A stretch of DNA of 30,169 nucleotides from Pseudomonadota bacterium (GCA_043821645.1 JBDRCO010000048.1:1-30169); one strand, 5' to 3'. Shown: positions 5,124 to 30,169, counted from the first letter of the stretch. Notes: generated from the sequence alone by a model not told the origin. Made by a program: numbers and translations.

Positions 5124-8100
5124 TCAGCGGCCGAACAGACCCTTGGCCTTCTTGGCCGCATCCTTCTTGGCCTTCTCTGCTGCCGCCTTGGCCTTCTTCT
5201 CGGCTTCCTTCTTCTTCTTGTCGGCCTCGGCCTTGATCTTTGCCTCGGCCTCCTTCTTCTGCTTCTCGGCGAGGTTCTTCGCCGCGTCGGCCTGCTTGCG
5301 GGCCTCGGCCTCGGCCATCTTCTTGGCCTCGTCAGCCTTCTTGCGTGCCTCGGCTTCGGCTTGAGCCTTGGCCTTGTTCGCAGCGGCCTCGGCCTGCTTC
5401 TTGGCATCATCGATCTTGGCGTCGACCTGGCCCTTGGCGTCGTCGATGAGCCCGGTCACGCTGCCGCCCAGGATCGACGAGGCGAGCCCCTGCACGTCGA
5501 TGCCCGTCACCCGGGGCTTGTCCCAGGTGCCACCGATCTTGAGCGGCACGGCCAGGGGCTTCTGCACCAGATTCTTGCCCAGAGCTGCGTTGATCACCGC
5601 TGGCGCCAGGAAGGCCGTTCCCGTCAGATCCAGGGTCCTGTCCAGGGCACCGCCGCCCGACAGCTCGAGCTCACCAAAGCCCGTCTTGCTCCGCACGGGC
5701 TTCTTGAGCGAGAACTTCCCCTTGGCGAAGCGCAGCCAGGCGCTGAGGTCGCGCAGGGTGGTGCCGCCGGGGTCCAGCTTGAAGCCCTTGTAGCCCTTGA
5801 ATCCGCTCTTCGCGAGGACGGCCTTGAGGGGCGTACCGATGGGGCCGAGCACATCCAGGGACTTGATGGTAAGGGCCTCGGTGTTGAAATCCACGGGGCC
5901 ATCCAGGCTGGTGGTGAGGTCGTCGAGCGACAGTCCGCGCCCCGTGACGTCGATGTTTTGATCCACCAGTCCACTGAACACCTGCCCCATCGAGGTGTGC
6001 GCGGCCAGTGCCTGCCCCAGGTCGACATGCGTGGTCTTGAACTTGAGGGTGTAGCCGGTGTAACTGGCCGGCAGATCAAAGCGCGAACCCGCCGCCGAGA
6101 TTCGGCCTCCGTAGATATCGAAGTCCAGCGCCTCGAAGGTGACCACGCCATTGACCATGGTCAGCTTGCCCACGAAGTTCTTGCAGTCCATCCCCTTGAA
6201 CCGGGCCTGGCCAATGCGCAGGGCCCCCTGGCCGCTCACCGTGGCCAGCAGCTCGCGGGTAGACGCCGACAGGCCGTGCGGGTTGTCGTCGGCCGTCGAG
6301 GAGTCCTTGCCCGCAGGCTTGGCTTCTGCCGCATCCTCCTCGCCAAGCAGCTCGTCGATGTTGAGGTAGGGGCTCTGGATGTCGAAGCGAAAGTTCGGGC
6401 GCTGCAGGTTGGTGATGCCCAGGGTGCCCTGGATGCGCGCCTTGTCGTAGACGAGCTGGTCGATGCGCACGTCGGCGACGATGGTCGAGGTGTCGTCAGG
6501 ATTGCCCTTGAAGGTGGCGCCACCCTTGAAGGAGCCGCCGGCAGGTAGCGAGGAGGCACCAGGCACCGTGCGTCGAATATCATCGAAGGCCACGTCGAGC
6601 CTGGGCACGTTCACGTCGAGCGCCGGGCTCGTGCCGTCCAGACCGCTGGCACCGCCCGTGGCCGAGATGGAGGTCGAATTGAGCGTGAGGTTGGCGCGCT
6701 GGATATCCGCACGTGCCGGGGTCTTGAGCATCGCCAGGTCGAGCTTGAGAGGCATACCTGCCGGTTTGTCCAGCACCTTGCTGCCGTCGTCACCGGTGCT
6801 CTGCAGAGCCAGGCCGTCGAGGTCTGTCTTCACCGCCAGGCTCAGATTCTCGCCCTGGGGTTGAACCTGGGCATCGATGAGCCCGCTTCCGCGAGCACTG
6901 AAACCGCTGAGGTTGACGTCGAGATCGCTGAGCTTGACGCTGGCCTGGGCCTGCTGCTTGTCGCCCTGGGCGCTCGCCCGGGCCACGATCTCGAAGCTGC
7001 CGTCGACCTTCTTGCCGCCACCGAGGGCCTCGGCCACCGCGGGCAACAGCTCCTTGAGGGAGGCCACGCGGATCGGTCCGGTCTTGAGATCCGCGGTCAT
7101 CGGCGCGCCAGCCGCCGTCCCCAGGCTCAGCGACCCCGTGAGGCGGGCCGTGTCCACCGCGAGCTGGAAAGCTGGCACATCGAGCCTGTCGCCTGTTCGC
7201 TTGCCGGCAAGCTTGAGGTTGAGCGCGCTCCCGGCCTTCTTGTCGAAGGCGTCGGCCCAGGCCACGTGGGCCCGGTCGAGGTCGAGGCCAATGTCCACGG
7301 CACTGGCGTTGCCGTTGACCTGGGCCTGGATGGGTCCGGCCAGGGTGAGCTCGGCGGGCAACAGTGCACTCTTCGACGGCACCACGGCCACCACCCGCGC
7401 CAGGTCCTGCACCAGCAGCTTGAGGTCGGCGTTGACGAGGCCGGTGGGGCTCAGGCTTCGCGCGTCGAGGGTACCGCGGAGATCGACGCCGGTGCCGGTG
7501 ACAGCGAGGCTCCGGATCTGGTAGCTCGGCGCCTCGAGGTCCACCCGCGCGTCGAGCTGGACGTCGAGGTCGAGGCTCTTGCCCTGCACACCACCCTGGT
7601 GCAGCACCACACCAGCAGCCTGGATCGTGCCTGTCGAGGCGAGGAGCTTGAGATCCCGTGAGGCCTCGACCTTGAGATCGAGGGACAGCTGGCCCGCGGC
7701 GGGTGCCAGGGCGTCGGCAGGGAGCAGTCCGCCCCAGGGCCCCAGCGCCAGGGTTCCCAGGACCAGGGCCGCCTGAAGGTCGGGCATGGGTGAAAACGAC
7801 AGGTCCTTGCGCAGCTCGGACAGAGTCACCTGGAGCGAGATGGGGCTGCGGCTGGTCCCATCCTCGAGCACGGCGCGCAACGACAGCGCGATGGGCGCGC
7901 CCAGGCGAATGTCGCGAAGCTCGATGAAGAGATCGCTCACTGCCAGCGGACGCCCCAGGCTGGCGTCATCGATCTCGATGCGCGCCCCCTCGATGGCCAC
8001 CCGCTCTACACGCGCACCCTCGAGAGCCGTCAGATCCGCAGGTGTGTCCTCTGCCGGCGCGGGCGCGTGCTCGGCCGAGCCCGACGCCATGTGGTCCAGC

Positions 8101-8498
8101 ACGTCCTGAAAATTCCAGATCCCTTGCTTGTCCCGGGCCACGCGCAGGGTGAGCCCCTTGAGGGAGATCTCACGCACGGTCAGCTTCTTGCCCAGGGACA
8201 GGATGGCGTCGAGCAGATCGACGCGCACCTCGACCGACCCCAGAGCGAGCTGGTCCGCGGTGGAGCCTTGCGGGCCGGCCAGGGCGATGCCTTGCAGGCG
8301 AGCCTCGAGCCGCGGCAACACCGTGCTCGTCACCTCGCCCAGCTTGACCTGGCGCCCCAGCTTCTCGCTCACCAGGGTCGCGATGCGATCCTTGTGCGCG
8401 TTGATCAGAGCGTCGGGCTTGATCAGCAGCAGGGCCGCGCCGGCCACGAGCACGAGCAGACCAAGCACGATGGCGAGGGCGAGGACGAGCTTCTTCAT
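5124..8498 (-). CDS. AsmA family protein (bridge-like lipid transfer protein) with Lys/Ala-rich C-terminal tail
   Basis: Start MKKLVLALAIVLGLLVLV at 8498 after GGAGA. AsmA N-terminal signatures (SEKLGRQVKLG, RDKQGIWNFQD), a long beta-strand-rich body and the C-terminal VPLKIGGTWDKP motif. Confidence 0.88.
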   Translation of the reverse strand: MKKLVLALAIVLGLLVLVAGAALLLIKPDALINAHKDRIATLVSEKLGRQVKLGEVTSTVLPRLEARLQGIALAGPQGSTADQLALGSVEVRVDLLDAILSLGKKLTVREISLKGLTLRVARDKQGIWNFQDVLDHMASGSAEHAPAPAEDTPADLTALEGARVERVAIEGARIEIDDASLGRPLAVSDLFIELRDIRLGAPIALSLRAVLEDGTSRSPISLQVTLSELRKDLSFSPMPDLQAALVLGTLALGPWGGLLPADALAPAAGQLSLDLKVEASRDLKLLASTGTIQAAGVVLHQGGVQGKSLDLDVQLDARVDLEAPSYQIRSLAVTGTGVDLRGTLDARSLSPTGLVNADLKLLVQDLARVVAVVPSKSALLPAELTLAGPIQAQVNGNASAVDIGLDLDRAHVAWADAFDKKAGSALNLKLAGKRTGDRLDVPAFQLAVDTARLTGSLSLGTAAGAPMTADLKTGPIRVASLKELLPAVAEALGGGKKVDGSFEIVARASAQGDKQQAQASVKLSDLDVNLSGFSARGSGLIDAQVQPQGENLSLAVKTDLDGLALQSTGDDGSKVLDKPAGMPLKLDLAMLKTPARADIQRANLTLNSTSISATGGASGLDGTSPALDVNVPRLDVAFDDIRRTVPGASSLPAGGSFKGGATFKGNPDDTSTIVADVRIDQLVYDKARIQGTLGITNLQRPNFRFDIQSPYLNIDELLGEEDAAEAKPAGKDSSTADDNPHGLSASTRELLATVSGQGALRIGQARFKGMDCKNFVGKLTMVNGVVTFEALDFDIYGGRISAAGSRFDLPASYTGYTLKFKTTHVDLGQALAAHTSMGQVFSGLVDQNIDVTGRGLSLDDLTTSLDGPVDFNTEALTIKSLDVLGPIGTPLKAVLAKSGFKGYKGFKLDPGGTTLRDLSAWLRFAKGKFSLKKPVRSKTGFGELELSGGGALDRTLDLTGTAFLAPAVINAALGKNLVQKPLAVPLKIGGTWDKPRVTGIDVQGLASSILGGSVTGLIDDAKGQVDAKIDDAKKQAEAAANKAKAQAEAEARKKADEAKKMAEAEARKQADAAKNLAEKQKKEAEAKIKAEADKKKKEAEKKAKAAAEKAKKDAAKKAKGLFGR
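5127..5430 (-). repeat. Low-complexity Lys/Ala/Glu helical repeat (AEAEARKKADEAKK-type) inside the AsmA C-terminus
   Basis: The translation shows repeated AEAEARK[KQ]AD and AKK/AEK units. Confidence 0.8.
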
Positions 8499-8669
8499 GA
8501 GAGGTCTCCCGCAGGGGGGCGTGCACAAGGGCAGGACCCCGGAATGCCCGGCATGCTAGATCGTCACAGAGGGCGCGTCATCCGTGGACCCAAGGCGTGG
8601 ATGCGGAGACGTGAGGCCGGACCCGGCGACAGGTCCGGAACCTGCAACCCGCCAGGTCGCGAGGTTCCC

Positions 8670-15363: not shown

Positions 15364-15379
15364 CAAGGATTTGGTGCCC

Positions 15380-18300
15380 ATGACAACGATCAACACCACT
15401 CGTCCTGGCACGAACGTTCCACCCATCACAACGACCACGACACCGGTCGACGACGCGCCCAAGGAACTCGGGGTCAAGGCGCCGGAGAGCCCGGACGCGC
15501 TCAAGCGCGACGAGGTCGGGCGGGCGGCGGCCAAGAAGCTCATCGACGTGGTCAGCGCCAACAAGGACGTCGCAGGCACGGGTCAAGAGAGCGCGGCCAG
15601 GGGCGACCCCCGGGTCACCGAGCGGCGCGGCGCCCTGTCCACCCTCATCGCCGAGAAGAGCGGCCGCGGGCCCGTGTTCATGGGCATGCTCGACGCCCTG
15701 GGCAGCAACGTGGCCAACGACGTCAAGTGGTTGATGTCGGCGGACCGCGCCGACTACAAGCTGGATGGCGACAGCAAGCAGTTCGACTGGGCCAAGAGCG
15801 ACATGAGCGGCCCATCGGCCATCAAGAAGGAGTTCGACAAGCGGGTCAAGAAGGGCCAGGAGCGCGCCAAGGGTATCGACGACCAGAGCAAGAGCTTCCT
15901 CGACGTCAGCGACTCCTCGGTCATCGGCCTGAGCTTCATCCAGGACCCCAAGCTGCGCGCCGAGTCCATGATGGACACCCTGCTGCAGTTCAGGGCCCGC
16001 ACCGACAAGGCCAACCAGGCCGAGGTCACCAGCGGTGACAACGCCACCCGCATGGACCAGATCGCACCGGCCCTGGTGGCCGAGCAGCGCATCCTGCTGG
16101 CCTCGGCCGACCTCGCCGTCGACGACCCGGTCAAGATGCGCGAGTTCGCGCTGCTGCGCGAGGTCATCGCTTCGCACCCGACCTCGTCGGTGAACGGCAT
16201 CTTCGACGCCCGCAATGCGGTCGGCAAGCTGTTCATGGACGGCAACGACAACTACTCGAGCACCACCCACGACATGGCGTGGATCAAGGAAGAAAAGGCG
16301 CCCGGCGCCACGGCCTCGGCCTACAAGGCCATCCACCACAACTTTTCCCGCGACACCCCGAACAACATCGCCTGCACCATCAAGGAGTGGGTGTTCCCGG
16401 TGGGGCCCGCCGAGCACCGCGAGAAGCTATTCCTGACCCTGTGCGACGCCGTGACCCAGGCCCGCGCCGGTCAGGGTGACGCCGTCAAGAAGCAGCTGCT
16501 GGCCCTGGGTGCGCCGACGAAGGACACGCTCCAACCGCTGCTCGACAAGCTGGCCTCGGCCAGTGGCACGGGCGTGGCCGACGCCATCGCCACCTTCATG
16601 GTCGAGAACGCCCAGAAGCCCCTGTGCGCCAGCCCGCGCAAGGCCCTGGATCAGATGGCCAAGAAGGCTGCGGACCTGGCCTCGGGCATGTACCACTACG
16701 ACAAGCCAGGCGAGTACAAGAAGATCCGCGAGGCGATCGCTGGTTACGGCGAGCCGCTGGCGACGCAACTCAAGGGCCTCAAGGACGCCATCAAGGACCT
16801 CCCCGACGAGAAGATCGGCGAGGCCATGCAGAAGTGGCTCAAGGACAACGAGAGCCTGACCCTGGTCGGCAACGTCGAGGGCAACCTGGCCATGTTCGCG
16901 CGCCTGTACCGCGCGGTGTGCGCCGACCAGCCCAACGTCGACACCCTCGAGAAGAACATCTTCAAGGCCGGCGACGCCTGGCCCGAGGTGGCCGACGTCA
17001 TCGCGCGCCTGCGCGCGGGCAATGACCTGGGCGCGCTCAAGGAACTGGGCGAGGCCCGGCTGGCCCTGCGCGACGCCGTGGTCAATGCCAAGACCGGCTT
17101 CGAGCGCCACGAGCTGATCAAGTTCGACGCCCAGCTGTCGCGCCTGACCTGCACCGAGCTCGGAGCCGCCGTCGACCGGGTGGCCGACCTCAAGACCGAC
17201 GGCCAGAAGAGCGAGGCCCTGCTCGGGGTGCAGACGGCCCTGCGCGCCGCCATCGCCAGCGGCCTGCACACCATCAAGTCCGACGACGACACCGGGGCCC
17301 GGCGCAGCACGCCCCTGGACCAGGTGCTGACCCAGGTCGACGCGGCCATCGCCTCGGGCAAGGTCAACGAGGACCAGTACCGCGAGCTCATGTGCGCCGT
17401 GTACAAGTCCACCGCCAGCACCATCCAGAACATGCGCGCCTTCGCCGATCTGCGGGCCGCCGACGTGGCCTCGGGCGGCGTGCAGCTCGACCCGATGTTC
17501 ATGGACCAGTTCGTCAAGCAGAGCCCCCTGCACTACGCCAGCGCCCTGGCCCAGAAGGGCATGCGCGTGGGCCTGCGCGAGAAGATCACGCCGCGCAGCA
17601 TCGAGAACGTCGAGGGCATGCGCGTGCTCAACAGCGTCGGCCCGGTGGTCTTCACCAGCGTGGTCACCGCCGAGAACTCGAAGCAGCTGGCCGAGATGGG
17701 CACCAGCAAGGACCAGCTCGCCGTCCTGTACAAGCTCGAGGAGAAAAAGATGGTCGCCGTGGGCGGCCTGTTCGTCGACACCGAGAACGCGCCTGGCGGC
17801 ACCAGCCACCTGAACATGGACGCCATGAACAACGGCATCCCGGTGGTGGCGCTGCCCGAGCTGCGCACCAAGTACGCCGAGTTCTTCCAAAACGCCGAGC
17901 GCGAGGGCGGCGTGTACATCGACGACCACGCGGGTGGCTTCCGCATGCTCACCGTCGACAAGGCCATCGAGGAGGGCCTGATCCCGGGCGGCGTGGCCGG
18001 TGACCCGGTGGCCAGCAAGGCCGCCATCGACAACCTGCGGCCCGGCGTCAACCGCAAGATCACCTTCCTCAAGCCCACCGACGACGGCAAGGCCTGGGAC
18101 GTGATGGCCAGGCACGACGCCATCATCAACGACGACCGCGTCACCCGCGTCATCGAGATCTACTCGCCTCAGGAGGAGGTCGCAGGCATAGGCCGCGGCT
18201 GCCCGACCTGGGCCGAGCTGGCCAAGCTGGGCACTCACGCCCGCCACCTGGCCGGCGAGAAGGGCACGGTGTTGGCCCTGCTCAGTGCGCATCCGGTGCT

Positions 18301-19408
18301 GGGCAAGTACGTGCCCCAGGGCTCGGAGATCACGCCCGGCGACATCCGCGACATGCTCAAGGTGGCCAGGGCCGACGACGGGCGGAGCATGGCCGAGCTG
18401 TGGGACAGCGTGTGGACCCAGGATCCCAAAGTCGGCATCGTCACCGACGACAACTACCTGGACAGCGCCTTTTACACCGACGCCCAGTACCGCGCCGAGA
18501 CCCGGAAGAAGCTGCAGGATCAGACCCGCGACAAGCTCGAGGCCGCGTTCATCGACCAGAGCGGCGACCCGCCCAAGCTCACCGCCGAGGGCGAGAAGAT
18601 GTACGCCAACCTGATGAAGAACCCGGCCCTGATCGAGAGCGAGACCGGCAGCCTCATCTTCCGTTCGAGCTTCACCGGCGAGGACAGGCCCGGCAAGTCG
18701 GGCGCTGGCCAGTACGAGAGCTACGTCGACCGCAAGATGGCCAAGCGCCTGTACGGCGAGCCCAAGACCAACGAGATGTTCGGCATCTACGAGGCCGCGC
18801 GCAAGGCGCTGGACGAGGCCAAAAAAGGCGGCGACCAGGCGATCATCAGCGCTGCCCAGGCCGAATACGACAAGGTGCGCGACGCCCACATCGCCTTCAT
18901 GGGCCCGGCGCGGCTCAAGTCGGCCATCGGCGTCATCGAGTCCACCTGGATGCCCGAGCCCATCGAGAACAACGTGGCCGAGGGCTTCTTCCTCAAGTAC
19001 ATCGGGCCCACCGTGGCGGTGCAGGACTGCCTCAAGCCGGACATCTCGGGCGTGACCATCTCGCGCGACGTCGAGACCGGCGCCCGCGGCCAGGTCACGG
19101 CACAGATCGTCAAGGGATTCGGCGGTGGCGTCGACGGCGGCAAGACCACCGAGGCGGTCATCGGCCAGGGCACGACCCAGCTCAAGATCGTCGACGGCCA
19201 GCCCGCGGACGGCAGCGACGTCACGGTGCAGGGCATCCAGGTCAGCGACCAGGACATGCAGACCCTGCGCACCATCGTGCTGGAGACCGAGAAGTTTTTC
19301 CACGAGACCATCGAGCCGGGCAAGGGCTACGCCGTGGACATGGAAGTGGCGCGCCACAACGGCGAGTGGAAGGTCGTGCAAGCCCGCGTCATCATGATGG
19401 ACAAGTAG
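15380..19408 (+). CDS. Dikinase of the PEP-utilising superfamily with glucan-water-dikinase-like domain order (helical N-terminal region, phospho-His domain, C-terminal ATP-grasp), 1342 aa
   Basis: Phospho-His motif GGTSHLNMDAMNNGIPVV (His codon 17807-17809) precedes the ATP-grasp motifs AGEKG (18251), VPQG, RSSFTGED...AGQYES (18662), VAVQ...SGV, GFGGGVDGG, DMEV and VVQAR. There is no PEP/pyruvate TIM barrel. AAGGA RBS; strongly biased codon usage. Confidence 0.88.
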   Translation: MTTINTTRPGTNVPPITTTTTPVDDAPKELGVKAPESPDALKRDEVGRAAAKKLIDVVSANKDVAGTGQESAARGDPRVTERRGALSTLIAEKSGRGPVFMGMLDALGSNVANDVKWLMSADRADYKLDGDSKQFDWAKSDMSGPSAIKKEFDKRVKKGQERAKGIDDQSKSFLDVSDSSVIGLSFIQDPKLRAESMMDTLLQFRARTDKANQAEVTSGDNATRMDQIAPALVAEQRILLASADLAVDDPVKMREFALLREVIASHPTSSVNGIFDARNAVGKLFMDGNDNYSSTTHDMAWIKEEKAPGATASAYKAIHHNFSRDTPNNIACTIKEWVFPVGPAEHREKLFLTLCDAVTQARAGQGDAVKKQLLALGAPTKDTLQPLLDKLASASGTGVADAIATFMVENAQKPLCASPRKALDQMAKKAADLASGMYHYDKPGEYKKIREAIAGYGEPLATQLKGLKDAIKDLPDEKIGEAMQKWLKDNESLTLVGNVEGNLAMFARLYRAVCADQPNVDTLEKNIFKAGDAWPEVADVIARLRAGNDLGALKELGEARLALRDAVVNAKTGFERHELIKFDAQLSRLTCTELGAAVDRVADLKTDGQKSEALLGVQTALRAAIASGLHTIKSDDDTGARRSTPLDQVLTQVDAAIASGKVNEDQYRELMCAVYKSTASTIQNMRAFADLRAADVASGGVQLDPMFMDQFVKQSPLHYASALAQKGMRVGLREKITPRSIENVEGMRVLNSVGPVVFTSVVTAENSKQLAEMGTSKDQLAVLYKLEEKKMVAVGGLFVDTENAPGGTSHLNMDAMNNGIPVVALPELRTKYAEFFQNAEREGGVYIDDHAGGFRMLTVDKAIEEGLIPGGVAGDPVASKAAIDNLRPGVNRKITFLKPTDDGKAWDVMARHDAIINDDRVTRVIEIYSPQEEVAGIGRGCPTWAELAKLGTHARHLAGEKGTVLALLSAHPVLGKYVPQGSEITPGDIRDMLKVARADDGRSMAELWDSVWTQDPKVGIVTDDNYLDSAFYTDAQYRAETRKKLQDQTRDKLEAAFIDQSGDPPKLTAEGEKMYANLMKNPALIESETGSLIFRSSFTGEDRPGKSGAGQYESYVDRKMAKRLYGEPKTNEMFGIYEAARKALDEAKKGGDQAIISAAQAEYDKVRDAHIAFMGPARLKSAIGVIESTWMPEPIENNVAEGFFLKYIGPTVAVQDCLKPDISGVTISRDVETGARGQVTAQIVKGFGGGVDGGKTTEAVIGQGTTQLKIVDGQPADGSDVTVQGIQVSDQDMQTLRTIVLETEKFFHETIEPGKGYAVDMEVARHNGEWKVVQARVIMMDK

Positions 19409-19465: not shown

Positions 19466-19810
19466 ATGCCTTACACGACGACGGCCAAGCAGTTCATCGA
19501 GGGCGGCAAGTTGCAGGACCTGCTGGGTCACCCGGCGACCAGTGGCCTGAAGGCTCTGATCAAGCTCGCCATCAGCGGCGACGACGGCGGCACCTGGTAC
19601 TACGACGTGGGCGACAAGAAGCTCAGCAAGAAGTCCACGGCCAAGCCCAGCTGCATCATCGAGGCCCAGGACATCGACTTCATGGCCCTGGTCGAGGGCC
19701 GCATGAGCCCTTCGGACGGCATGATCACCGAACGCCTGCATGTTGCCGGTGACACGACCCTGGTCACGCGCCTGATGACGGCGCTGAGCCAGGTGCAGCA
19801 GCAAGCTTAG
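19466..19810 (+). CDS. SCP2 sterol/lipid-binding domain protein
   Basis: IKLAISGDDGGTWYYDV...PSCIIEAQDIDFMALVEGRMSPSDGMITERLHVAGDTTLVTRL is the typical SCP2 pattern. Confidence 0.88.
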   Translation: MPYTTTAKQFIEGGKLQDLLGHPATSGLKALIKLAISGDDGGTWYYDVGDKKLSKKSTAKPSCIIEAQDIDFMALVEGRMSPSDGMITERLHVAGDTTLVTRLMTALSQVQQQA

Positions 19811-19967
19811 CTTGTCGCACGGACCCTTGACCTAGGCGGCCGACGGGTGGCGCCGAGCAGGGGGGCCCCCGCCGCGCGCAGGGACGAGCACGGTGGGGGA
19901 GGCGAGGTGACAGGACCCGTCGAAAGAGCGTGTAAGCGGGTCGGTGCGAGATGATATCGGGGGCCGC

Positions 19968-20846
19968 GTGACGACGATCTCGAGCACCACCCAGCAGACC
20001 CTGCGCGCCGTGTTCGGCGACCGCGTGCCCGCGGACGCGACGCAGGCCCTGGGTATGCTCGATGCGAGCCCGCTCAGGCCTCGAGATCCCACGGCGCTGC
20101 AGGCCCTGCGCGCGGCGGTGCTCGAGGGGGCGGCGCGATCCCTCGAGGAGCTCAAGCAGAGCAACCCGACCCTGGCCGCAACCATCCCCCCACCCTCCTC
20201 GGTCGCGCACCAGCCCATGCCACCGGCCATGGCCTTGCGCCTCAGCGAGCTGCAGCGCATCCGTGACGCGACACCCGCCGATGGCCTGCAGCGCACCGTG
20301 AGCCTGGCCCGGGCCCGCGAGCTTTTCGACATGCTCGCCGCTGCGCCCGATATCCCCCACGACTTCATCGACGAGGGCTGCCACTACCGGGCCCACGTCG
20401 AGAACAAGCGCCTTGAAGAGGCTGGGGTGTTCAGCGAGAAGATCTTCATCGTGCCCGACGGCGGCGATCTGCGCATGAACAGCGAGCACTCGCCGATCGG
20501 CTTCACCCTGGCCATGTTTCACACCGCGCCCTGCATCGCGGTCAAGCTCGACGACGGCAGCATCGAACGACGGGTGCTCGACCCCAGCATGGGGGACCAT
20601 CCCCTGACCATCGACGAGTGGTCCACCACCATGCACGGCCTCAACGGCAAGCCTTGCTCCTTCGTGGTGCTGCCGCGCTTTGCCATGCACCTGATGGACC
20701 GCGACAATCCACCCGCGACCTGGCGCCAGGCCGACCTCGACGACGCCCTGGCCTGGAACACGCAATACAAGGCCCTGCAGCAAGACATGCTGGACAGCGG
20801 TTTCTACGACAGCCTCAAGGAGATGGCCGGCGCCGCTGGGGGGTGA
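19968..20846 (+). CDS. Protein-glutamine glutaminase (deamidase) family protein, no signal peptide
   Basis: IPHDFIDEGCHYRAH (Cys, 20379), KIF, MFHTAP (His, 20520) and VLDPSM (Asp, 20580) form the Cys-His-Asp triad of protein glutaminases, with a His-Asp spacing of 20. GTG start at 19968 preferred; 19944 is an alternative. Confidence 0.85.
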   Translation: MTTISSTTQQTLRAVFGDRVPADATQALGMLDASPLRPRDPTALQALRAAVLEGAARSLEELKQSNPTLAATIPPPSSVAHQPMPPAMALRLSELQRIRDATPADGLQRTVSLARARELFDMLAAAPDIPHDFIDEGCHYRAHVENKRLEEAGVFSEKIFIVPDGGDLRMNSEHSPIGFTLAMFHTAPCIAVKLDDGSIERRVLDPSMGDHPLTIDEWSTTMHGLNGKPCSFVVLPRFAMHLMDRDNPPATWRQADLDDALAWNTQYKALQQDMLDSGFYDSLKEMAGAAGG

Positions 20847-20907
20847 GCGCCGTCGGATGTGCAACCGACGGTTATAGGGTGCCCAGTGCACCCGCAGGGG
20901 GGGAGCG

Positions 20908-21159
20908 ATGTCAGGACCACGCGAGACCAATCCTGATGCCTTGCCACTCAAGGGCAGCGTGCTGCAGCTCAGCGAGCCCCGCGACGGCAAGCACCGGGTC
21001 ACCTTCAAGGAGCTGGCGTCGATCTACTACGTCGACGACACCCACCCCGAGCGCGACCGCATCCTGGTCGCCCTGCAGCGCTCCCTCGACACAGGGGAGG
21101 TGCTGCGCCTGACCTACTCGATCCGGGACAAGTGCTTGACGGGGTTCGACGAGGGCTGA
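20908..21159 (+). CDS. Small protein resembling the inhibitory pro-domain of protein glutaminase; candidate immunity protein
   Basis: GGAG RBS. RVTFKELASIYYVDDTHPERDRILVALQRSLDTGEVLRLTY aligns by eye with the recalled pro-region pattern VxFxxxAxxYxI...LxxAxxxxxPVxI. Confidence 0.68.
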   Translation: MSGPRETNPDALPLKGSVLQLSEPRDGKHRVTFKELASIYYVDDTHPERDRILVALQRSLDTGEVLRLTYSIRDKCLTGFDEG

Positions 21160-24806: not shown

Positions 24807-25664
24807 ATGGCGAAACATTCATGTCTTCCGGGCACGGCCATGATGCTGCTGCAGCTGGCATCGGCAGTTGCGCTGGCCCAGGCTCAAACACAGACGGCGA
24901 GCGACAAGACGCCGCCTGCCCCGCCCTCCATCCTTGTCCTCAAGACCCGCGTCACGGGCAAGGCAGCTGAGTCCGTTGACGCCACCACTCTGAGCAACCT
25001 GGCCGCGACGATCTTCAATGACAGCGGCCGCTACCAGGTGTCCAGCTACGAGGATGTGGTGGCGATGCTCGACGCCGAGCAGCAGAAGCAGCTGGCTGGC
25101 TGTGACGACGTGAGCTGCATGGCCGACATCGGCAGCGCCCTGGGTACACAGTTCCTTCTGTACACGCAAGTGGGTGAGGCCGGGGGCGTCACCGTGGTCA
25201 GCGCGAGCGTCATCGAAGCAGCCAAGGCGGCCGCCGTGGACAGGCAGTCCGTCTCCATCGACAACTCGCGGCAGATCGTCGATGCGGTGGGTGTGGTGTG
25301 CAAGCGCTTGCTCGGCGAACAGGCCGAACTCCCGGCGCCTCCCCCGTCGGCCGCCAGCTTCGACCCGTGGTTCGTGGCCTGGCCAGCGCTCGGCACAGGC
25401 GTGGTGGCGGGCATCGTCGGCCTCGGAGGCACGGGGGCCGCGCTGTACTTCAGCGGCGCGGCGCAAGATGCCCAGGACAGCACCGCCTTTGAGGCCTACC
25501 GCGGTAGCGGACACACGGCGAACACGGTCGCCCTCATCGGCTATGTCGCAGGTGGTGTACTGCTCCTGGGGGGTGCAAGCGCGGCTGTCCTTGGGCTGTT
25601 ACGAGGGTCCGGTGACGACGGATCCACAAGCGGCGGCTCCTCTGCAGAGGAGGTGAAGCCATGA
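24807..25664 (+). CDS. Exported protein with TolB_N/CsgG-like domain and C-terminal Gly-rich hydrophobic helices
   Basis: Signal peptide ...LASAVALA, then EQQKQLAGCDDVSCMADIGSALGTQFLLYTQVG, a pattern typical of myxobacterial proteins, and two Gly/Ala-rich hydrophobic segments. ATGA-coupled to the next gene. Confidence 0.75.
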   Translation: MAKHSCLPGTAMMLLQLASAVALAQAQTQTASDKTPPAPPSILVLKTRVTGKAAESVDATTLSNLAATIFNDSGRYQVSSYEDVVAMLDAEQQKQLAGCDDVSCMADIGSALGTQFLLYTQVGEAGGVTVVSASVIEAAKAAAVDRQSVSIDNSRQIVDAVGVVCKRLLGEQAELPAPPPSAASFDPWFVAWPALGTGVVAGIVGLGGTGAALYFSGAAQDAQDSTAFEAYRGSGHTANTVALIGYVAGGVLLLGGASAAVLGLLRGSGDDGSTSGGSSAEEVKP

Positions 25665-26923
25665 AGCGCACACACCACCGACCGGTGCATTCCACGCTCG
25701 GCCTGCTCATCCCTGTCTCCCTGACCCTCGCACTCGCACTGACCACGGGTACCTGCGTCCCCATGCCTGGCGATCCCGGTGAGCCCTGTCACACGAAGTT
25801 CGGCTGCGGTGATCTGACAGTGTGCGTTCCCAGGGACGGCGTCGGCGTTTGTGTTCTCGTCGTCGAGGTCTGCGGCAAGGACTGCGAGGCCGGACAGCAC
25901 TGCGATCCCGAGACCAAGAAGTGCGTCACGCCTGTCACGGTCTGCAGCGAGGGAGAGACCCGCGCCTGCGGCACGTGTCAGGACGGCCTGGAGACCTGCC
26001 ACGACGGCCAGTGGGAAGCCTGCGAGGGCGCGAGTGCCGGGGTCGAGATCCCCTGCGACAACAATGACAACGACTGCGATGGAGTGGCCGACGAGGACTC
26101 GTGCTCCGGGAGCTACGCGCTATCCTGTGACACCGGCCGCGGCCTGTGCCAGAGCACCGACGACGGCAGCTGTGGCTACCTGGCACGCGGCCCCGAGGAC
26201 GGGAGCGCCGCGCGAATGTGCCTGGTGAGCGGGGGTAACTTCCAGCTCGGCGAGCCTGCCCAGCAGACCTCGCTCGATACCTTCCTGCTCGATCGCGACG
26301 AGGTCACCAACGCGCGCTACCTCGCCTACTACCTGGCGCTGAATAGCAGTCCGACCATGCAGCACCAGGCCCTGCCCACTTGCTCGCCCGACAGTCTGGG
26401 CAAATCCTGGACCGAGACGGCCCCCTACCATCCAAATGGCCTCGCGGATCACCCCGTCACCTGCGTCAGCGAGTCCCAGGCCGCGGCATTCTGCCTCTGG
26501 GCTGGCAAGCGCCTTCCCGTCGAGAAGGAGTGGGAGGCCGCGGCTGCCGGAGAGAATGGCTTAACCTTCCCCTGGGGAGACAGCTTCATCAATGGCCGCG
26601 CCAACTGCATGGACGCGTCCTGTCACGATGTCTACACCCTCGACACCTGCGTGCAGGGACTCACCACCTGCCCGGACACGGCACCGGTGGAGAGGCTGAG
26701 CGAGGCGCCCGTCGACGGCAGGTCTCCCTTTGGCCTGACCCACATGGCGGGCAATGTCGCCGAGTGGACAGCTGCGATCGGCGCCAACGCCGCGGCCAAG
26801 GGCGGCAGCTTCGACGACGTGTCGGCGACCCTCCGCCACTGGGAGCGCGACTGGCGCCTGGCGGACGCCGAGCTCCCCACCATTGGCTTCCGTTGCGCAC
26901 TCACGCCGCCCCTGGGCCAGTGA
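25661..26923 (+). CDS. FGE-sulfatase (SUMF1/EgtB/PvdO) domain protein with N-terminal Cys-rich and MopE-like metal-binding repeat
   Basis: FLLDRDEVTNARY, HPVTCVS, AAAFCLWAGKRLPVEKEWEAAA, FPWG, SPFGLTHMAGNVAEW, KGGSF and IGFRCA. EIPCDNNDNDCDGVADE repeat. GAGGAGG RBS. Confidence 0.9.
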   Translation: MKRTHHRPVHSTLGLLIPVSLTLALALTTGTCVPMPGDPGEPCHTKFGCGDLTVCVPRDGVGVCVLVVEVCGKDCEAGQHCDPETKKCVTPVTVCSEGETRACGTCQDGLETCHDGQWEACEGASAGVEIPCDNNDNDCDGVADEDSCSGSYALSCDTGRGLCQSTDDGSCGYLARGPEDGSAARMCLVSGGNFQLGEPAQQTSLDTFLLDRDEVTNARYLAYYLALNSSPTMQHQALPTCSPDSLGKSWTETAPYHPNGLADHPVTCVSESQAAAFCLWAGKRLPVEKEWEAAAAGENGLTFPWGDSFINGRANCMDASCHDVYTLDTCVQGLTTCPDTAPVERLSEAPVDGRSPFGLTHMAGNVAEWTAAIGANAAAKGGSFDDVSATLRHWERDWRLADAELPTIGFRCALTPPLGQ

Positions 26924-27597: not shown

Positions 27598-30169
27598 TCA
27601 GAACTCGACGGTCCCCACCGTGAAGGTCTCCTTGCGGTCGGTCAGACGCAGGGTGACGCTCTTCTTCTGCTCGTTGGGCCTGCCGTAGTTTGTGTAGATG
27701 TCCAGCTGCAAGGTCACGGCGCCAATCATGGACTGGGCACTGGATCCAAAGAAGTTGGTCTGCACCGTGTACTCGCCGTGCATGGCCTTCTTGAGCACGT
27801 ACTCCTCCGGACCGTAGCCCTGTGTGAAGTCGCGGGACACCAGGCCACCGATCGTGGTGCGGTTGTGGCCGTAGTAAGCCTTCTCGCCCGACGGCTCGAT
27901 CACCCACAGGTCCATGTCGGTCAGGTCCGCGTCCCAGGTCATGACGATGCGGGTGTCCACGTCGAGGTTCTTGATCAGGCGCGGGTCCAGGGGAATCTGC
28001 GTCACGCCCTTCTTCTTCGCCCGCGGGATCATCCGATTCAGCTCCATCAGCGCGATCACCTCGATCTCGTCGAAGCGGTCCCAGCGGTTCATGACGACAT
28101 GCGTGAGCAGCTCCAGGGCGCGCGGGTAGTCCTCGAGCTCGCCGAGCACCAGCGCCAGGTCGCGATAGGATTGCGGTTCCTCGGGGCGCAGGCGCAGCAC
28201 ATCCTCGAAGGCCTGGGCAGCCAGCCTGAGCTCACCCAGCTGGGCCAGGCGATGCGCCAGCACGCGCAGCAGGGGCGCGTCCTCGAGCTCGATCTCCGCG
28301 ATGTTGGTCAGGACACGCAGGGCCACCGTCGGTTGCTTCTCGCGATAGAAGAAGTCAGCGCAATCCAGGAAGAATGCCGGCGAGCTGCCATGCTTCTCGC
28401 GCAGTGACAGGTACGCGCGATACCTGTCCCTGGCCGGCTTGGCCTGCAGCTCTCTGAGGTAGGGTGTATCTGGCTGCCAGGGCGCGAGGGCAATGGCAGC
28501 CTGGGGACCCGCCGCCACCCCGTCGCCATCCTTCTTCTCCTTGGCCTTGCCTTCCGCTTCCCCACCCTCGCCCCTGGCCAGGCGCGCCGGCGCCTCCTCC
28601 ATGGCACGCGACTCCATGTCAGGCGCAGGTGACGACGGTGCCATGTCCGCCATCGCCGGCGCTGCGCGTGGCTGGGCGAGGGACTTCTTGCTGGACTCCT
28701 CGCCGTAGCGAAAGTTCTTGGGATACTTGTAGACCGCCTCCCACCACTGAACACGCTGCTGCCACAGCTCGAGGATGCGCGTCAGCTTCTCCTGCTTCTG
28801 CTGCTCCTCGAGGCTGCGCTGCTGTGCCGCCTGTGCCAGGTACTGCGTGCGCATCTCGGGCAAGGACGCGGGCGGCTCGATCTGGTGTGTCACGTACTGG
28901 TCCAGAGACTCGAGCACGATGAGCGAGGTGGCGGGCGTGACCAGGCCGAAGCGCTTACCCAGGGCCACCATGGCCTCGCGATTGCGCTTGGGTGACACCA
29001 GAAGCTCGCCGAGCTGCTGCTGTGCCCAGAATCTCGTCAGCAAGGTTCCCTTCACGGCGCTCTTGCGCTCGACGACGACCTTGTCCTCGCGCAGCACCTT
29101 GCCAGCCACGCCATAACGAATGGCCAGTTGCGCGCGCTGTCCACGAAGCTGACCGCTCAGGGCAAAGGCCCCCTGCACGGGCGTCGAGGTCCGGGGATAC
29201 ACATGCCCCACATCCACCGCGGGGGCCTCGGAGGACAGAAAGGAGAAGGTCGCCACGCCGATGGCGCCCAGGACGTCCTTCATCGCGACCCGATCCAGGT
29301 TGAACTGCTGGCCGCCGCTCGCCCGCGCGATCTGATCGAGCAGGGCCGTGTTGTTGCCCGAACCGACGCTGATGGCGTACAGGGGGGCCTTGAAACCCTG
29401 CGCCAGCTCGCTGCCTATGTTGGACAGGCCGTCGCTGAAGAGCAGGTACAGGTCGGGTGACGCCTGGCCAACGGGCGGTGCCATGGAAGAAAGCTGGGTA
29501 CCTCCGTCGTACACGATCTCGCGCAGCGCTACGAGCAGAGCCTTGCTGTCTCCGCGCTCCACCGTGAAACGCTGCGCTTTTTCTGTCGCGTAATGAAACG
29601 GGACGAGTTCAACCTCGACACGACCAGGTAGGCTGGCGAGGTACTTTTGCAGGAACTCCAGCTCGCGCGCATGATCCCCGGTCCCCCGGGAGCGCGAGAC
29701 ATCCCAGAGCACCGTCATCCGGCGCGGCACGATGGCCCTGCGCGCAGCCACATCGCGAGGATCGGACACGGCGCTGCGCACGCAGAACACGACCTGGCCT
29801 TCGGGATTCTCCTCGACCAGAACCTGGGAGCCCGGGCGCGCGGGCACATCGACCACGAGCTGCGCGCTGACCCCGCCCTTGCGCAGGGTGGTCGCGGCCA
29901 GGTAACTCGACCCCGACTTCTTGAAGCTCAGCTTGGGACCAGACCAGCTCGACGAGGGAGCACCCTCAGCGCCCTGGACCTCGACCCGCAGGTTCAGCTC
30001 CTCCAGGTCCTTTCCCGTCGCCACTGGCAGCAGGTAGCGTAGCCCCGAGGCGCTCTGGGCCAGCTCGCTCACGTAGCGCACGCGCACCGTCCGCGTCCCC
30101 TTGGGAGGCAGCGGGTAGACCCGGGTCCTGAAGTTGTTGCCCTTGGTCCATTCGATGAGGCCCGGATCG
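27598..30169 (-). CDS. VIT / vWA-like / TPR / DUF2135 (YfaP-like) protein, 5'-truncated by the window edge
   Basis: The frame is open to the window end (DPGLIEWTKGNNFRTRVYPLP, end of VIT). MIDAS-like VLWDVSRS, YDGGT and LLFSDG; TSLIVLESLDQYV; TPR (LRPEEPQSYRDLA); C-terminal DMDLWVIEPSGE...DFTQGYGPEEY. Confidence 0.9.
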   Translation of the reverse strand, partial: DPGLIEWTKGNNFRTRVYPLPPKGTRTVRVRYVSELAQSASGLRYLLPVATGKDLEELNLRVEVQGAEGAPSSSWSGPKLSFKKSGSSYLAATTLRKGGVSAQLVVDVPARPGSQVLVEENPEGQVVFCVRSAVSDPRDVAARRAIVPRRMTVLWDVSRSRGTGDHARELEFLQKYLASLPGRVEVELVPFHYATEKAQRFTVERGDSKALLVALREIVYDGGTQLSSMAPPVGQASPDLYLLFSDGLSNIGSELAQGFKAPLYAISVGSGNNTALLDQIARASGGQQFNLDRVAMKDVLGAIGVATFSFLSSEAPAVDVGHVYPRTSTPVQGAFALSGQLRGQRAQLAIRYGVAGKVLREDKVVVERKSAVKGTLLTRFWAQQQLGELLVSPKRNREAMVALGKRFGLVTPATSLIVLESLDQYVTHQIEPPASLPEMRTQYLAQAAQQRSLEEQQKQEKLTRILELWQQRVQWWEAVYKYPKNFRYGEESSKKSLAQPRAAPAMADMAPSSPAPDMESRAMEEAPARLARGEGGEAEGKAKEKKDGDGVAAGPQAAIALAPWQPDTPYLRELQAKPARDRYRAYLSLREKHGSSPAFFLDCADFFYREKQPTVALRVLTNIAEIELEDAPLLRVLAHRLAQLGELRLAAQAFEDVLRLRPEEPQSYRDLALVLGELEDYPRALELLTHVVMNRWDRFDEIEVIALMELNRMIPRAKKKGVTQIPLDPRLIKNLDVDTRIVMTWDADLTDMDLWVIEPSGEKAYYGHNRTTIGGLVSRDFTQGYGPEEYVLKKAMHGEYTVQTNFFGSSAQSMIGAVTLQLDIYTNYGRPNEQKKSVTLRLTDRKETFTVGTVEF

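Follow-up and report, generated by a model that had tools for sequence, protein, structure and literature searches.

A Candidate Swivelling-Histidine Dikinase Family of Myxococcota with a Large Helical Domain and a Linked SCP2 Gene

A gene located on the + strand of a 30,169-nucleotide stretch of DNA from a Pseudomonadota bacterium (GCA_043821645.1, JBDRCO010000048.1:1-30169; the whole stretch is called the window here) encodes a three-part protein, consisting of an all-helical region of about 735 amino acids, a small domain bearing the motif APGG(T/N)SH, and a C-terminal PPDK_N ATP-grasp domain. This protein is a member of the swivelling-histidine dikinase superfamily (PPS/PPDK/RPH/GWD), as it combines the PPDK_N ATP-grasp, the residues that bind ATP and Mg, and a histidine motif that opens a helix. 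Dikinase chemistry can be assigned to it with good confidence. Moreover, it may represent a new 'X, water dikinase', in which the acceptor would be a hydrophobic hydroxyl compound delivered by an SCP2-family protein encoded directly downstream. This proposal, drawn from sequence and gene order, is tentative and is made with slightly less than even confidence.

Swivelling-histidine dikinases are few, and each known acceptor (pyruvate, starch, phenol, rifampicin, polyphenols) has begun a field of its own. The family described here adds a large, well-conserved presumed acceptor domain without a detectable relative, together with a strictly linked SCP2 gene, which suggests that the acceptor is hydrophobic, a possibility that nobody has explored. 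No description of the family was found in the open-access literature that was searched. Already known are the chemistry and two of its modules; neither the acceptor domain, nor the partnership with SCP2, nor the family as a whole is described there.

Gene and Domain Organization

The dikinase open reading frame (ORF) extends from a TTG at 15371 or an ATG at 15380 to position 19408 of the window on the + strand, which corresponds to 1345 or 1342 codons, respectively, and it is the sole very long ORF in this place. The ORF is genuine. Its G+C content is 0.95 at third codon positions versus 0.43 at second positions, an AAGGA sequence occurs about 10 nt 5' of the ATG, and a 100% identical database copy of 1342 amino acids (P0002) begins at the same ATG. 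Residues are counted here from the in-frame TTG at 15371 (1345 amino acids), and counts from the ATG are 3 lower. The motif coordinates of an earlier annotation, made from the sequence alone and referred to below as the original prediction, proved exact: YKAIHHNFSRD corresponds to residues 318-328 (window 16322-16354), LKELGEARLALRD...HELIKFDAQL to residues 556-589 (window 17036-17137), and the phospho-histidine, His810 in the ATG count, is His813 in the TTG count, its codon having been checked at 17807-17809. The gene and its parts are as follows.

15380..19408, + strand: dikinase gene (ORF list, translation, AAGGA, identical P0002, 60 relatives)
15380..15532, + strand: variable low-complexity N-terminal leader, residues ~4-54 (column conservation 0.30-0.39 over 39 rows; conserved core from about residue 60)
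15533..16630, + strand: first helical part, presumed acceptor domain, residues 55-420 (invariant columns, AlphaFold2 model, without a Pfam family)
16631..16885, + strand: insertion restricted to close relatives, residues 421-505 (occupancy 0.19-0.51 over 39 rows)
16886..17578, + strand: second helical part, residues 506-736
17192-17578, + strand: four-helix bundle ending the second helical part, residues ~608-736, adjoining the His domain
17579..18010, + strand: phospho-histidine swivel domain, residues 737-880 (invariant motif, AlphaFold2 model, hhalign, codon check)
18050..18163, + strand: three-stranded beta element between the His domain and the ATP-grasp, residues 894-931 (DSSP of the AlphaFold2 model)
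18176..19405, + strand: ATP-grasp nucleotide-binding domain, residues 936-1345

The sole Pfam match on the dikinase is PPDK_N (residues 1007-1341, E 4e-15), a family matched in 39 of 39 members. AlphaFold2 models were built from a 39-row family alignment, which included the query and 38 of its 60 relatives. In the model of residues 40-800 (pLDDT 88.3, pTM 0.83), only helices are present up to about residue 736, followed by the first strands of the small domain. The model of residues 700-1345 (pLDDT 87.3) consists of a beta-rich domain of about 130 residues, a three-stranded element (DSSP strands at model residues 195-203, 210-218 and 226-232) and the ATP-grasp. His813 is positioned there at the start of a short helix, the place occupied by the catalytic histidine in GWD, PPDK and RPH in the published account of StGWD1 (PMC13553574). 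The order of substrate region, histidine and ATP-grasp without a pyruvate barrel, as originally predicted, was borne out by both Pfam and the models. The predicted helical N-terminus was confirmed as well, with a minor correction to its length. As about 55 residues at its start vary among relatives and are probably disordered, the conserved folded part amounts to about 680 amino acids.

In the ATP-grasp domain, K964, R1098-S1099, E1104-D1105, K1109, Q1114, D1323, E1325, Q1337 and R1339 are invariant in the 39 sequences, and a PDB profile search aligns them with the RSS..ED, D.E and Q.R motifs of PPS and RPH. We take K964, R1098, D1323, E1325, Q1337 and R1339 to be the PPDK catalytic residues K22, R92, D321, E323, Q335 and R337. 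The entries 1jde (K22A) and 2dik (R337A) are among the structure matches of this domain, so that two of the positions are studied catalytic sites. The domain (936-1345) superposes on RPH better than on PPDK (best Foldseek E 2.2e-12), with an identity to RPH of only 18-20%. A helical insertion at ~1120-1175 occurs in close relatives only. Both single-protein and family-profile sequence searches of the PDB gave matches confined to the ATP-grasp.

The small histidine domain is diverged. Within its motif, A807, P808, G809, G810, S812 and H813 are invariant in the 39-row alignment. When the His domains of the family were compared by hhalign with 20 PEP-utilizers domains, the alignment paired histidine with histidine and had a probability of 78% and E 1.7e-5 across 92 columns; the profile comprised 80 family domains, 62 of which were kept by the hhalign filter, and the targets came from PPS, PPDK, enzyme I and RPH-like genes of Myxococcota. 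The E-value was 0.024 when the profile was limited to 12 family sequences, and the Pfam PEP-utilizers model matched 0 of 39 family members, even at E <= 5. Homology of this domain is therefore a matter of one profile–profile result together with the motif and the model, and the domain is too diverged for the Pfam model.

An ordinary phosphoenolpyruvate (PEP) synthase or pyruvate phosphate dikinase is what the PPDK_N match and weak NCBIfam PEP synthase matches (E 1.5e-4, about 20 bits) might suggest. However, these scores are far below the model cut-offs of 598-883, no PEP-utilizers_C barrel was matched by Pfam at E <= 1, and the protein terminates with the ATP-grasp, so that, compared with PEP synthase and PPDK (2OLS, 8A8E, 1DIK), the TIM barrel is missing and the domain order is reversed. 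In addition, the window's genome (7.07 Mb, 140 contigs, 94.7% complete) possesses two further PPDK_N genes, one each on C87 and C106. Only the one on C106 shows PPDK_N together with PEP-utilizers, since PEP-utilizers matches are located on C106, C23 and C51 and not on C87. At the level of domain content, an ordinary PPS or PPDK is refuted, and the chance left to this explanation is minute.

RPH from Listeria monocytogenes (5HV1/5HV3/5FBS) also differs from the window's protein. Its order is ATP-grasp, acceptor domain and histidine domain, in contrast to acceptor, histidine and ATP-grasp here, and the structure searches matched the helical region neither to the rifampin-binding domain nor to any RPH chain.

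The Helical Domain and the Distribution of the Family

Residues 55-736 are conserved across the family, except for the insertion 421-505, and form about 35 helices in ~680 amino acids. The invariant polar residues of the first helical part are R85, R86, D117, D202, Q206, R208, R227, R281, N282, Y318, H322 and N324, and the second part contains the invariant residues R563, D586, D707, F710, K716, H721 and Y722. In the model of residues 40-800, the last helices of this region touch the His domain. This location, and a length of ~680 conserved residues with many invariant Arg, Asp, His, Asn and Tyr, were counted in favour of a role as the acceptor domain.

The region has no detectable relative in the collections searched. 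Pfam assigned no family to it in the query or the 39 members, and a PDB sequence search gave no match. Its model had no match at E <= 0.001 when compared with the PDB by Foldseek, and Foldseek together with two further structure searches listed generic helical bundles only. The ESM Atlas returned a single unnamed match at 0.76 for residues 55-745, which provided no lead. A profile of residues 55-745, prepared from 12 sequences (the window and 11 loci), was compared with 1.84 billion representative proteins, and only 50 matches at E <= 0.001 were obtained. Fifteen weaker or odd-sized matches were scanned with Pfam: a C-terminal PPDK_N was above the cut-off in 10 and weak in 1, and no family was found in 3. 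One carried an acyl-CoA dehydrogenase C-terminal domain, which is probably a chance helical similarity. Two matches read by eye (P0099 and P0107) are of bacterial type, with their own ..SH histidine motif and an ATP-grasp.

A protein search identified 60 relatives at E <= 0.001, far beyond what chance would give, and word-index protein searches found nothing beyond the dikinase family itself. All named relatives come from Myxococcota or from metagenome-assembled genomes (MAGs) labelled 'Deltaproteobacteria'. When a single genome of each species was scanned with a pattern, 15 loci were recovered, all from MAGs of these groups. Among 401 Myxococcota genomes sampled, 26 match the N-terminal profile, and they represent 18 of 154 genera.

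In the original prediction, automatic pipelines were expected to label the protein probably as PEP synthase, and relatives are indeed called 'PEP/pyruvate-binding domain-containing protein', 'hypothetical' or 'LysM...'. A LysM match by Pfam was observed in 3 of 39 members (P0033, P0036, P0037) within the ATP-grasp region, immediately N-terminal to the RSS motif (residues 1045-1076 in P0033), and spans only 32 of 43 model positions. The name 'LysM peptidoglycan-binding domain-containing protein', which NCBI gives to some relatives on account of this match, is probably misleading. Because the match lies inside the ATP-grasp and is not N-terminal, it is uninformative about a cell-wall location.

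The SCP2 Partner and the Proposed Acceptor

The closest neighbour of the dikinase gene is its presumed partner.

19466..19810, + strand: SCP2-family gene, 114 amino acids, 58 nt 3' of the dikinase gene (Pfam SCP2, E 4.7e-12)

Linkage between the two genes is strict in the subfamily, as an SCP2 lipid-carrier gene is directly downstream in all 14 loci with DNA in this place, the window included. Of the 15 related loci, 11 have 350 nt or more of sequence 3' of the dikinase gene, and tblastn detected SCP2 there in every one of them; Pfam confirmed it in the 9 of these in which an ORF was picked. The other 4 loci break off at the dikinase gene or no more than 300 nt beyond it. Furthermore, tblastn found SCP2 downstream in both loci (L057, L058) of a branch with about 31% identity. 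The SCP2 protein of the window shows a weak match to the SCP2-type lipid chaperone UbiT (NCBIfam, E 0.0047, below the cut-off).

From these features, a reaction cycle may be proposed. By analogy with the chemistry of the family, the C-terminal ATP-grasp would bind ATP and move its beta-phosphate to His813 (His810 from the ATG), freeing AMP and Pi. The small His domain would then swing to the large N-terminal helical domain, which would bind the acceptor, and the phosphate would pass to a hydroxyl group. The best guess for the acceptor is an endogenous lipid, a hydrophobic metabolite or an antibiotic, which would be handed over by the 114-amino-acid SCP2 protein. The glutaminase-like and cysteine-protease-like neighbours described below may perhaps belong to the same module.

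The strictly linked SCP2 gene suggests that the acceptor is hydrophobic, a putative assignment that approaches, and does not exceed, an even chance. Phenolic compounds are the acceptors of HpeI, whose entry 9goj is also among the structure matches of the ATP-grasp, and likewise of the phenol dikinases and of phenylphosphate synthase. The phenol-type enzymes (phenylphosphate synthase; HpeI, 9GOJ; BsPPS) differ from the present protein in being split into subunits or RPH-ordered, and we know of none with an SCP2 partner or a helical domain of ~680 amino acids. Hydrophobic hydroxyl acceptors are reported for the closest structural relatives in the StGWD1 paper, namely rifampin for RPH and polyphenols for BsPPS (PMC13553574).

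Besides the 12-sequence comparison and the empty Pfam search for the histidine domain given above, several points count against this reading of an 'X, water dikinase' served by SCP2. In a branch with about 30% identity, no downstream SCP2 gene was found in 5 of 5 loci, each with at least 2.9 kb of sequence (tblastn, and Pfam on 17 ORFs); thus, SCP2 is not required by the dikinase fold as such. Gene linkage is not equal to binding, and the contact between SCP2 and the dikinase is putative. SCP2 domains bind many ligands, and membership in the Pfam family does not say which. An anionic or a polymeric acceptor would fit the many invariant arginines of the helical domain as well. Sterols and hopanoids were considered and are unlikely acceptors, since a squalene/oxidosqualene cyclase match occurs in only 8 of the 26 genomes that carry the dikinase, and not in the window's genome, compared with 170 of 401 genomes overall.

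The significance would grow if the acceptor were a lipid, or if kinship to the GWD central domain were shown. In its fullest form, this proposal would make the protein the first soluble AMP-forming dikinase to act on a membrane lipid or hydrophobic metabolite from a dedicated SCP2 carrier, with an acceptor domain of ~680 amino acids whose fold is unseen in solved structures. Lipids or metabolites would then be phosphorylated in a way not seen before and restricted to uncultured Myxococcota, and among bacteria the family might be the closest sister of the His-first lineage behind the starch dikinases. Such a combination appears rather unlikely in its entirety.

Relation to Glucan Water Dikinases

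In the original prediction, the N-terminal region was regarded as a relative of the central domain of glucan water dikinases (GWD/PWD), and glycogen, another glycan or a macromolecule was proposed as the acceptor. According to this explanation, the protein would be a prokaryotic GWD/PWD relative whose helical region is a diverged GWD central domain and which phosphorylates glycogen or another glucan. Such kinship would bear on the origin of starch dikinases and on prokaryotic glycogen phosphorylation, the agent of which is called unknown in a 2026 review that also states that no prokaryotic glucan-phosphorylating machinery is known (PMC13666283).

The structure of GWD1, which was called undetermined in a February 2026 review (PMC12892837), is now described for StGWD1 (PDB 9HA9, 9QVI; JBC 2026, PMC13553574). 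In this description, a central domain of 444 residues, with 20 helices in three clusters, is connected by a four-residue linker to the His domain; it abuts the His domain, beside which a four-helix bundle is located, and the phosphate-transfer interface is the place where the two domains meet. The ATP-grasp of StGWD1 is reported there as closer to RPH than to PPDK. The window's protein has the same domain order, a short linker, a four-helix bundle at the His domain and an RPH-like ATP-grasp. These likenesses are to the published description of StGWD1 (PMC13553574).

There are also differences. The helical region here, with ~680 amino acids and ~35 helices, is about 50% larger than that of StGWD1, and the His motif is GG(T/N)SH rather than QT.LSH of the PF22973 (GWD1_pHisD) type. 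Pfam detected no carbohydrate-binding module (CBM; CBM45 or CBM20) or other beta-rich module at E <= 1, and residues 40-736 are modelled as helices only. To our knowledge, Pfam contains no CBM45 model, and CBM45 was judged by the absence of any beta-rich module. PF22973 itself has 0 matches in the window's genome at E <= 0.001 and is not among the families listed for the 39 members at E <= 5.

None of the proteins inspected among the 50 profile matches was like plant GWD. The Foldseek comparison with the PDB listed no GWD entry, nor did the other structure searches; the Foldseek library extends to 2026-04-08 and the StGWD1 paper is from 2026-08, and no 9HA9 or 9QVI row was present. In these searches, the predicted kinship of the N-terminal region with the GWD central domain found no support, and the echoes of GWD motifs named in the original prediction are putative likenesses. 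The same applies to the glucan acceptor: there is no starch-binding module, and the conserved neighbour is SCP2 and not a glucan gene.

Bacterial proteins with a PF22973 match served as stand-ins for GWD in the comparisons. Of 401 Myxococcota genomes, 11 have such a match, which exceeds the cut-off in 4; this agrees with the earlier expectation that other His-first bacterial proteins exist. These proteins (loci L038-L043, L045, L047, L048) are ~690-800 amino acids long and consist of an N-terminal domain of ~270 amino acids, a GWD1_pHisD-like domain with the motif QT(Y/P)LSH, and PPDK_N. Their N-terminal domain contains an invariant histidine in a Y.(I/Y/M)H(Y/H/W).F motif. On this layout, they constitute a second bacterial family of putative His-first dikinases. 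They share with the window's family the His domain placed before PPDK_N and the occurrence in Myxococcota, but differ in the N-terminal domain, which is much shorter, and in the His motif. Lipoprotein-like signal sequences ending in Cys were noticed in two of them (L045, L047), which is odd for an ATP-using enzyme.

An ATP-grasp phylogeny was prepared from 48 domains (12 from the family, 12 from distant family members, 9 of PF22973 type, 5 PPS, 5 PPDK and 5 RPH-like), leaving out 3 of 8 RPH-like loci in which the hidden Markov model (HMM) gave no ORF and 1 of 6 PPDK loci without the anchor motif. The family was placed on the same side as the PF22973-type proteins, with an SH-aLRT support of 90 under LG+G4 and 80 under a C20 mixture with quick search. 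This was counted in favour of a GWD relative, yet the split is weak, as a topology grouping the family with PPS and RPH-like proteins was not rejected (p-AU 0.339). The family ATP-grasp HMM recognized PPS (1e-8 to 1e-13) and RPH-like proteins (1e-4 to 4e-15), and only 3 of 9 PF22973-type proteins (7e-8 to 9e-4). A PDB profile search with the alignment of PF22973-type proteins gave PPS and RPH matches only.

The other two domains were compared by hhalign. The His domain is closer to PEP-utilizers than to the PF22973 type, for which E is 0.0049 over 63 columns. When the helical domain was aligned with the N-terminal domain of the PF22973-type proteins, the best local match paired the invariant histidine of IHHNF with their invariant histidine, but this is not significant (E 0.08, probability 0.7%, 13 columns).

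Gene content is equivocal. The window's genome encodes a glycogen phosphorylase and a CBM48 enzyme and has four GH57 matches, and three closely related loci, but no others, have a GH57 gene on the opposite strand, 3.3 kb 5' of the dikinase gene. On the other hand, no glucan gene is conserved beside the dikinase in related loci. A GlgA-type glycogen synthase domain (PF08323) was matched in 21 of 26 carrier genomes, and not in the window's genome or 4 others. Since glucan metabolism is present in the window's genome despite the lack of a GlgA-type match, gene content does not decide the glycogen question. Taken as a whole, a glucan dikinase related to GWD is improbable.

Accessory Neighbours and a Protein Acceptor

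Two further genes follow SCP2 in the window.

19944..20846, + strand: protein-glutaminase-like gene (Gln_deamidase_2; Pfam PF18626, E 2.6e-16; start codon uncertain), an accessory gene of some loci only
20908..21159, + strand: small ORF of 83 amino acids after the glutaminase-like gene (ORF pick, no family match)

The glutaminase-like gene also matches the NCBIfam protein-glutamine glutaminase model (E 1e-8, below the cut-off). Apart from the window, a Gln_deamidase_2 gene is present 3' of SCP2 in L012, in L013 and, cut off by the contig end, in L001. A 73-amino-acid ORF is found at the matching place in L012, and the deamidase alone was picked in L013. The pair of genes at 19944-21159 could be an enzyme with an inhibitor or an immunity-type partner.

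A protein of 466-563 amino acids (about 527) adjoins the dikinase in 10 of the 15 loci (L002-L004, L006-L008, L012-L015). It contains invariant Cys (G.G.C..Q), His (HGW) and Asp (DRTW) residues, and 2 of 11 members show a weak Transglut_core match (best E 0.038). Directly before it, a protein of 73-106 amino acids with a WxxHSE...YW motif was picked in five loci (L002, L007, L008, L013, L014), and in L005 the same small protein is next to the dikinase, but a large partner was not found. Neither the ~527-amino-acid protein nor the small proteins were assigned to a family by Pfam, NCBIfam or PADLOC. The large protein may be a transglutaminase- or papain-like enzyme with a small partner. Its kinship with the glutaminase-like neighbour was considered and is not significant (hhalign E 0.031).

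These neighbours raise the alternative that the dikinase phosphorylates a protein or peptide, within a protein-modification module that would include the cysteine-protease/transglutaminase-like, glutaminase-like and small proteins. The frequent presence of the Cys/His/Asp protein, its weak Transglut_core matches and the deamidase genes after SCP2 are consistent with this alternative. However, the protein-modifying genes are not universal, and in the window's genome the WxxHSE and ~527-amino-acid pair is unlinked to the dikinase, being located on another contig (C76:192584-194425; L016, L017). The catalytic triad is recognized only at the level of motifs, and a PDB profile search with the ~527-amino-acid protein gave no match. 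Moreover, the gene with strict linkage, SCP2, encodes a carrier of small molecules, and we know of no member of the dikinase superfamily that acts on a protein other than itself. A protein acceptor is therefore quite improbable, and delivery of a hydrophobic compound by SCP2 is the preferred reading.

On the 5' side of the dikinase, the window shares nothing conserved with the related loci, and PADLOC identified no defence family among the dikinase and its neighbours.

Other Genes of the Window and of the Distant Branches

Several other genes of the window are not conserved together with the dikinase in related loci. At 5124-8528 (- strand), 7 kb from the dikinase gene, a protein of 1134 amino acids resembling AsmA/DUF748/YhdP is encoded (AsmA, E 9e-30); this is a family of envelope lipid-transport bridges. 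A protein with an FGE-sulfatase domain (25661-26923, + strand; E 3.7e-32) and one of 829 amino acids with TPR repeats and DUF2135 (27598-30087, - strand) are ordinary neighbours.

In both loci of the ~31%-identical branch, the DNA just upstream of the dikinase start, on the same strand, matches ~75-107 N-terminal residues of the ~527-amino-acid partner (tblastn; L057 6616-6834 and L058 6534-6845, in genomes G044 and G050). The dikinase of this branch may carry, or be preceded by, the N-terminal segment of that partner.

In two loci of the ~30%-identical branch, both from genus g64 (L063 4127-7086, L065 6441-9363), a gene for an FMN-dependent alpha-hydroxy-acid dehydrogenase follows the dikinase in the place of SCP2, and genes for SnoaL-like and GMC oxidoreductase proteins come next on the other strand. 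The branches of the dikinase family may act on different small molecules.

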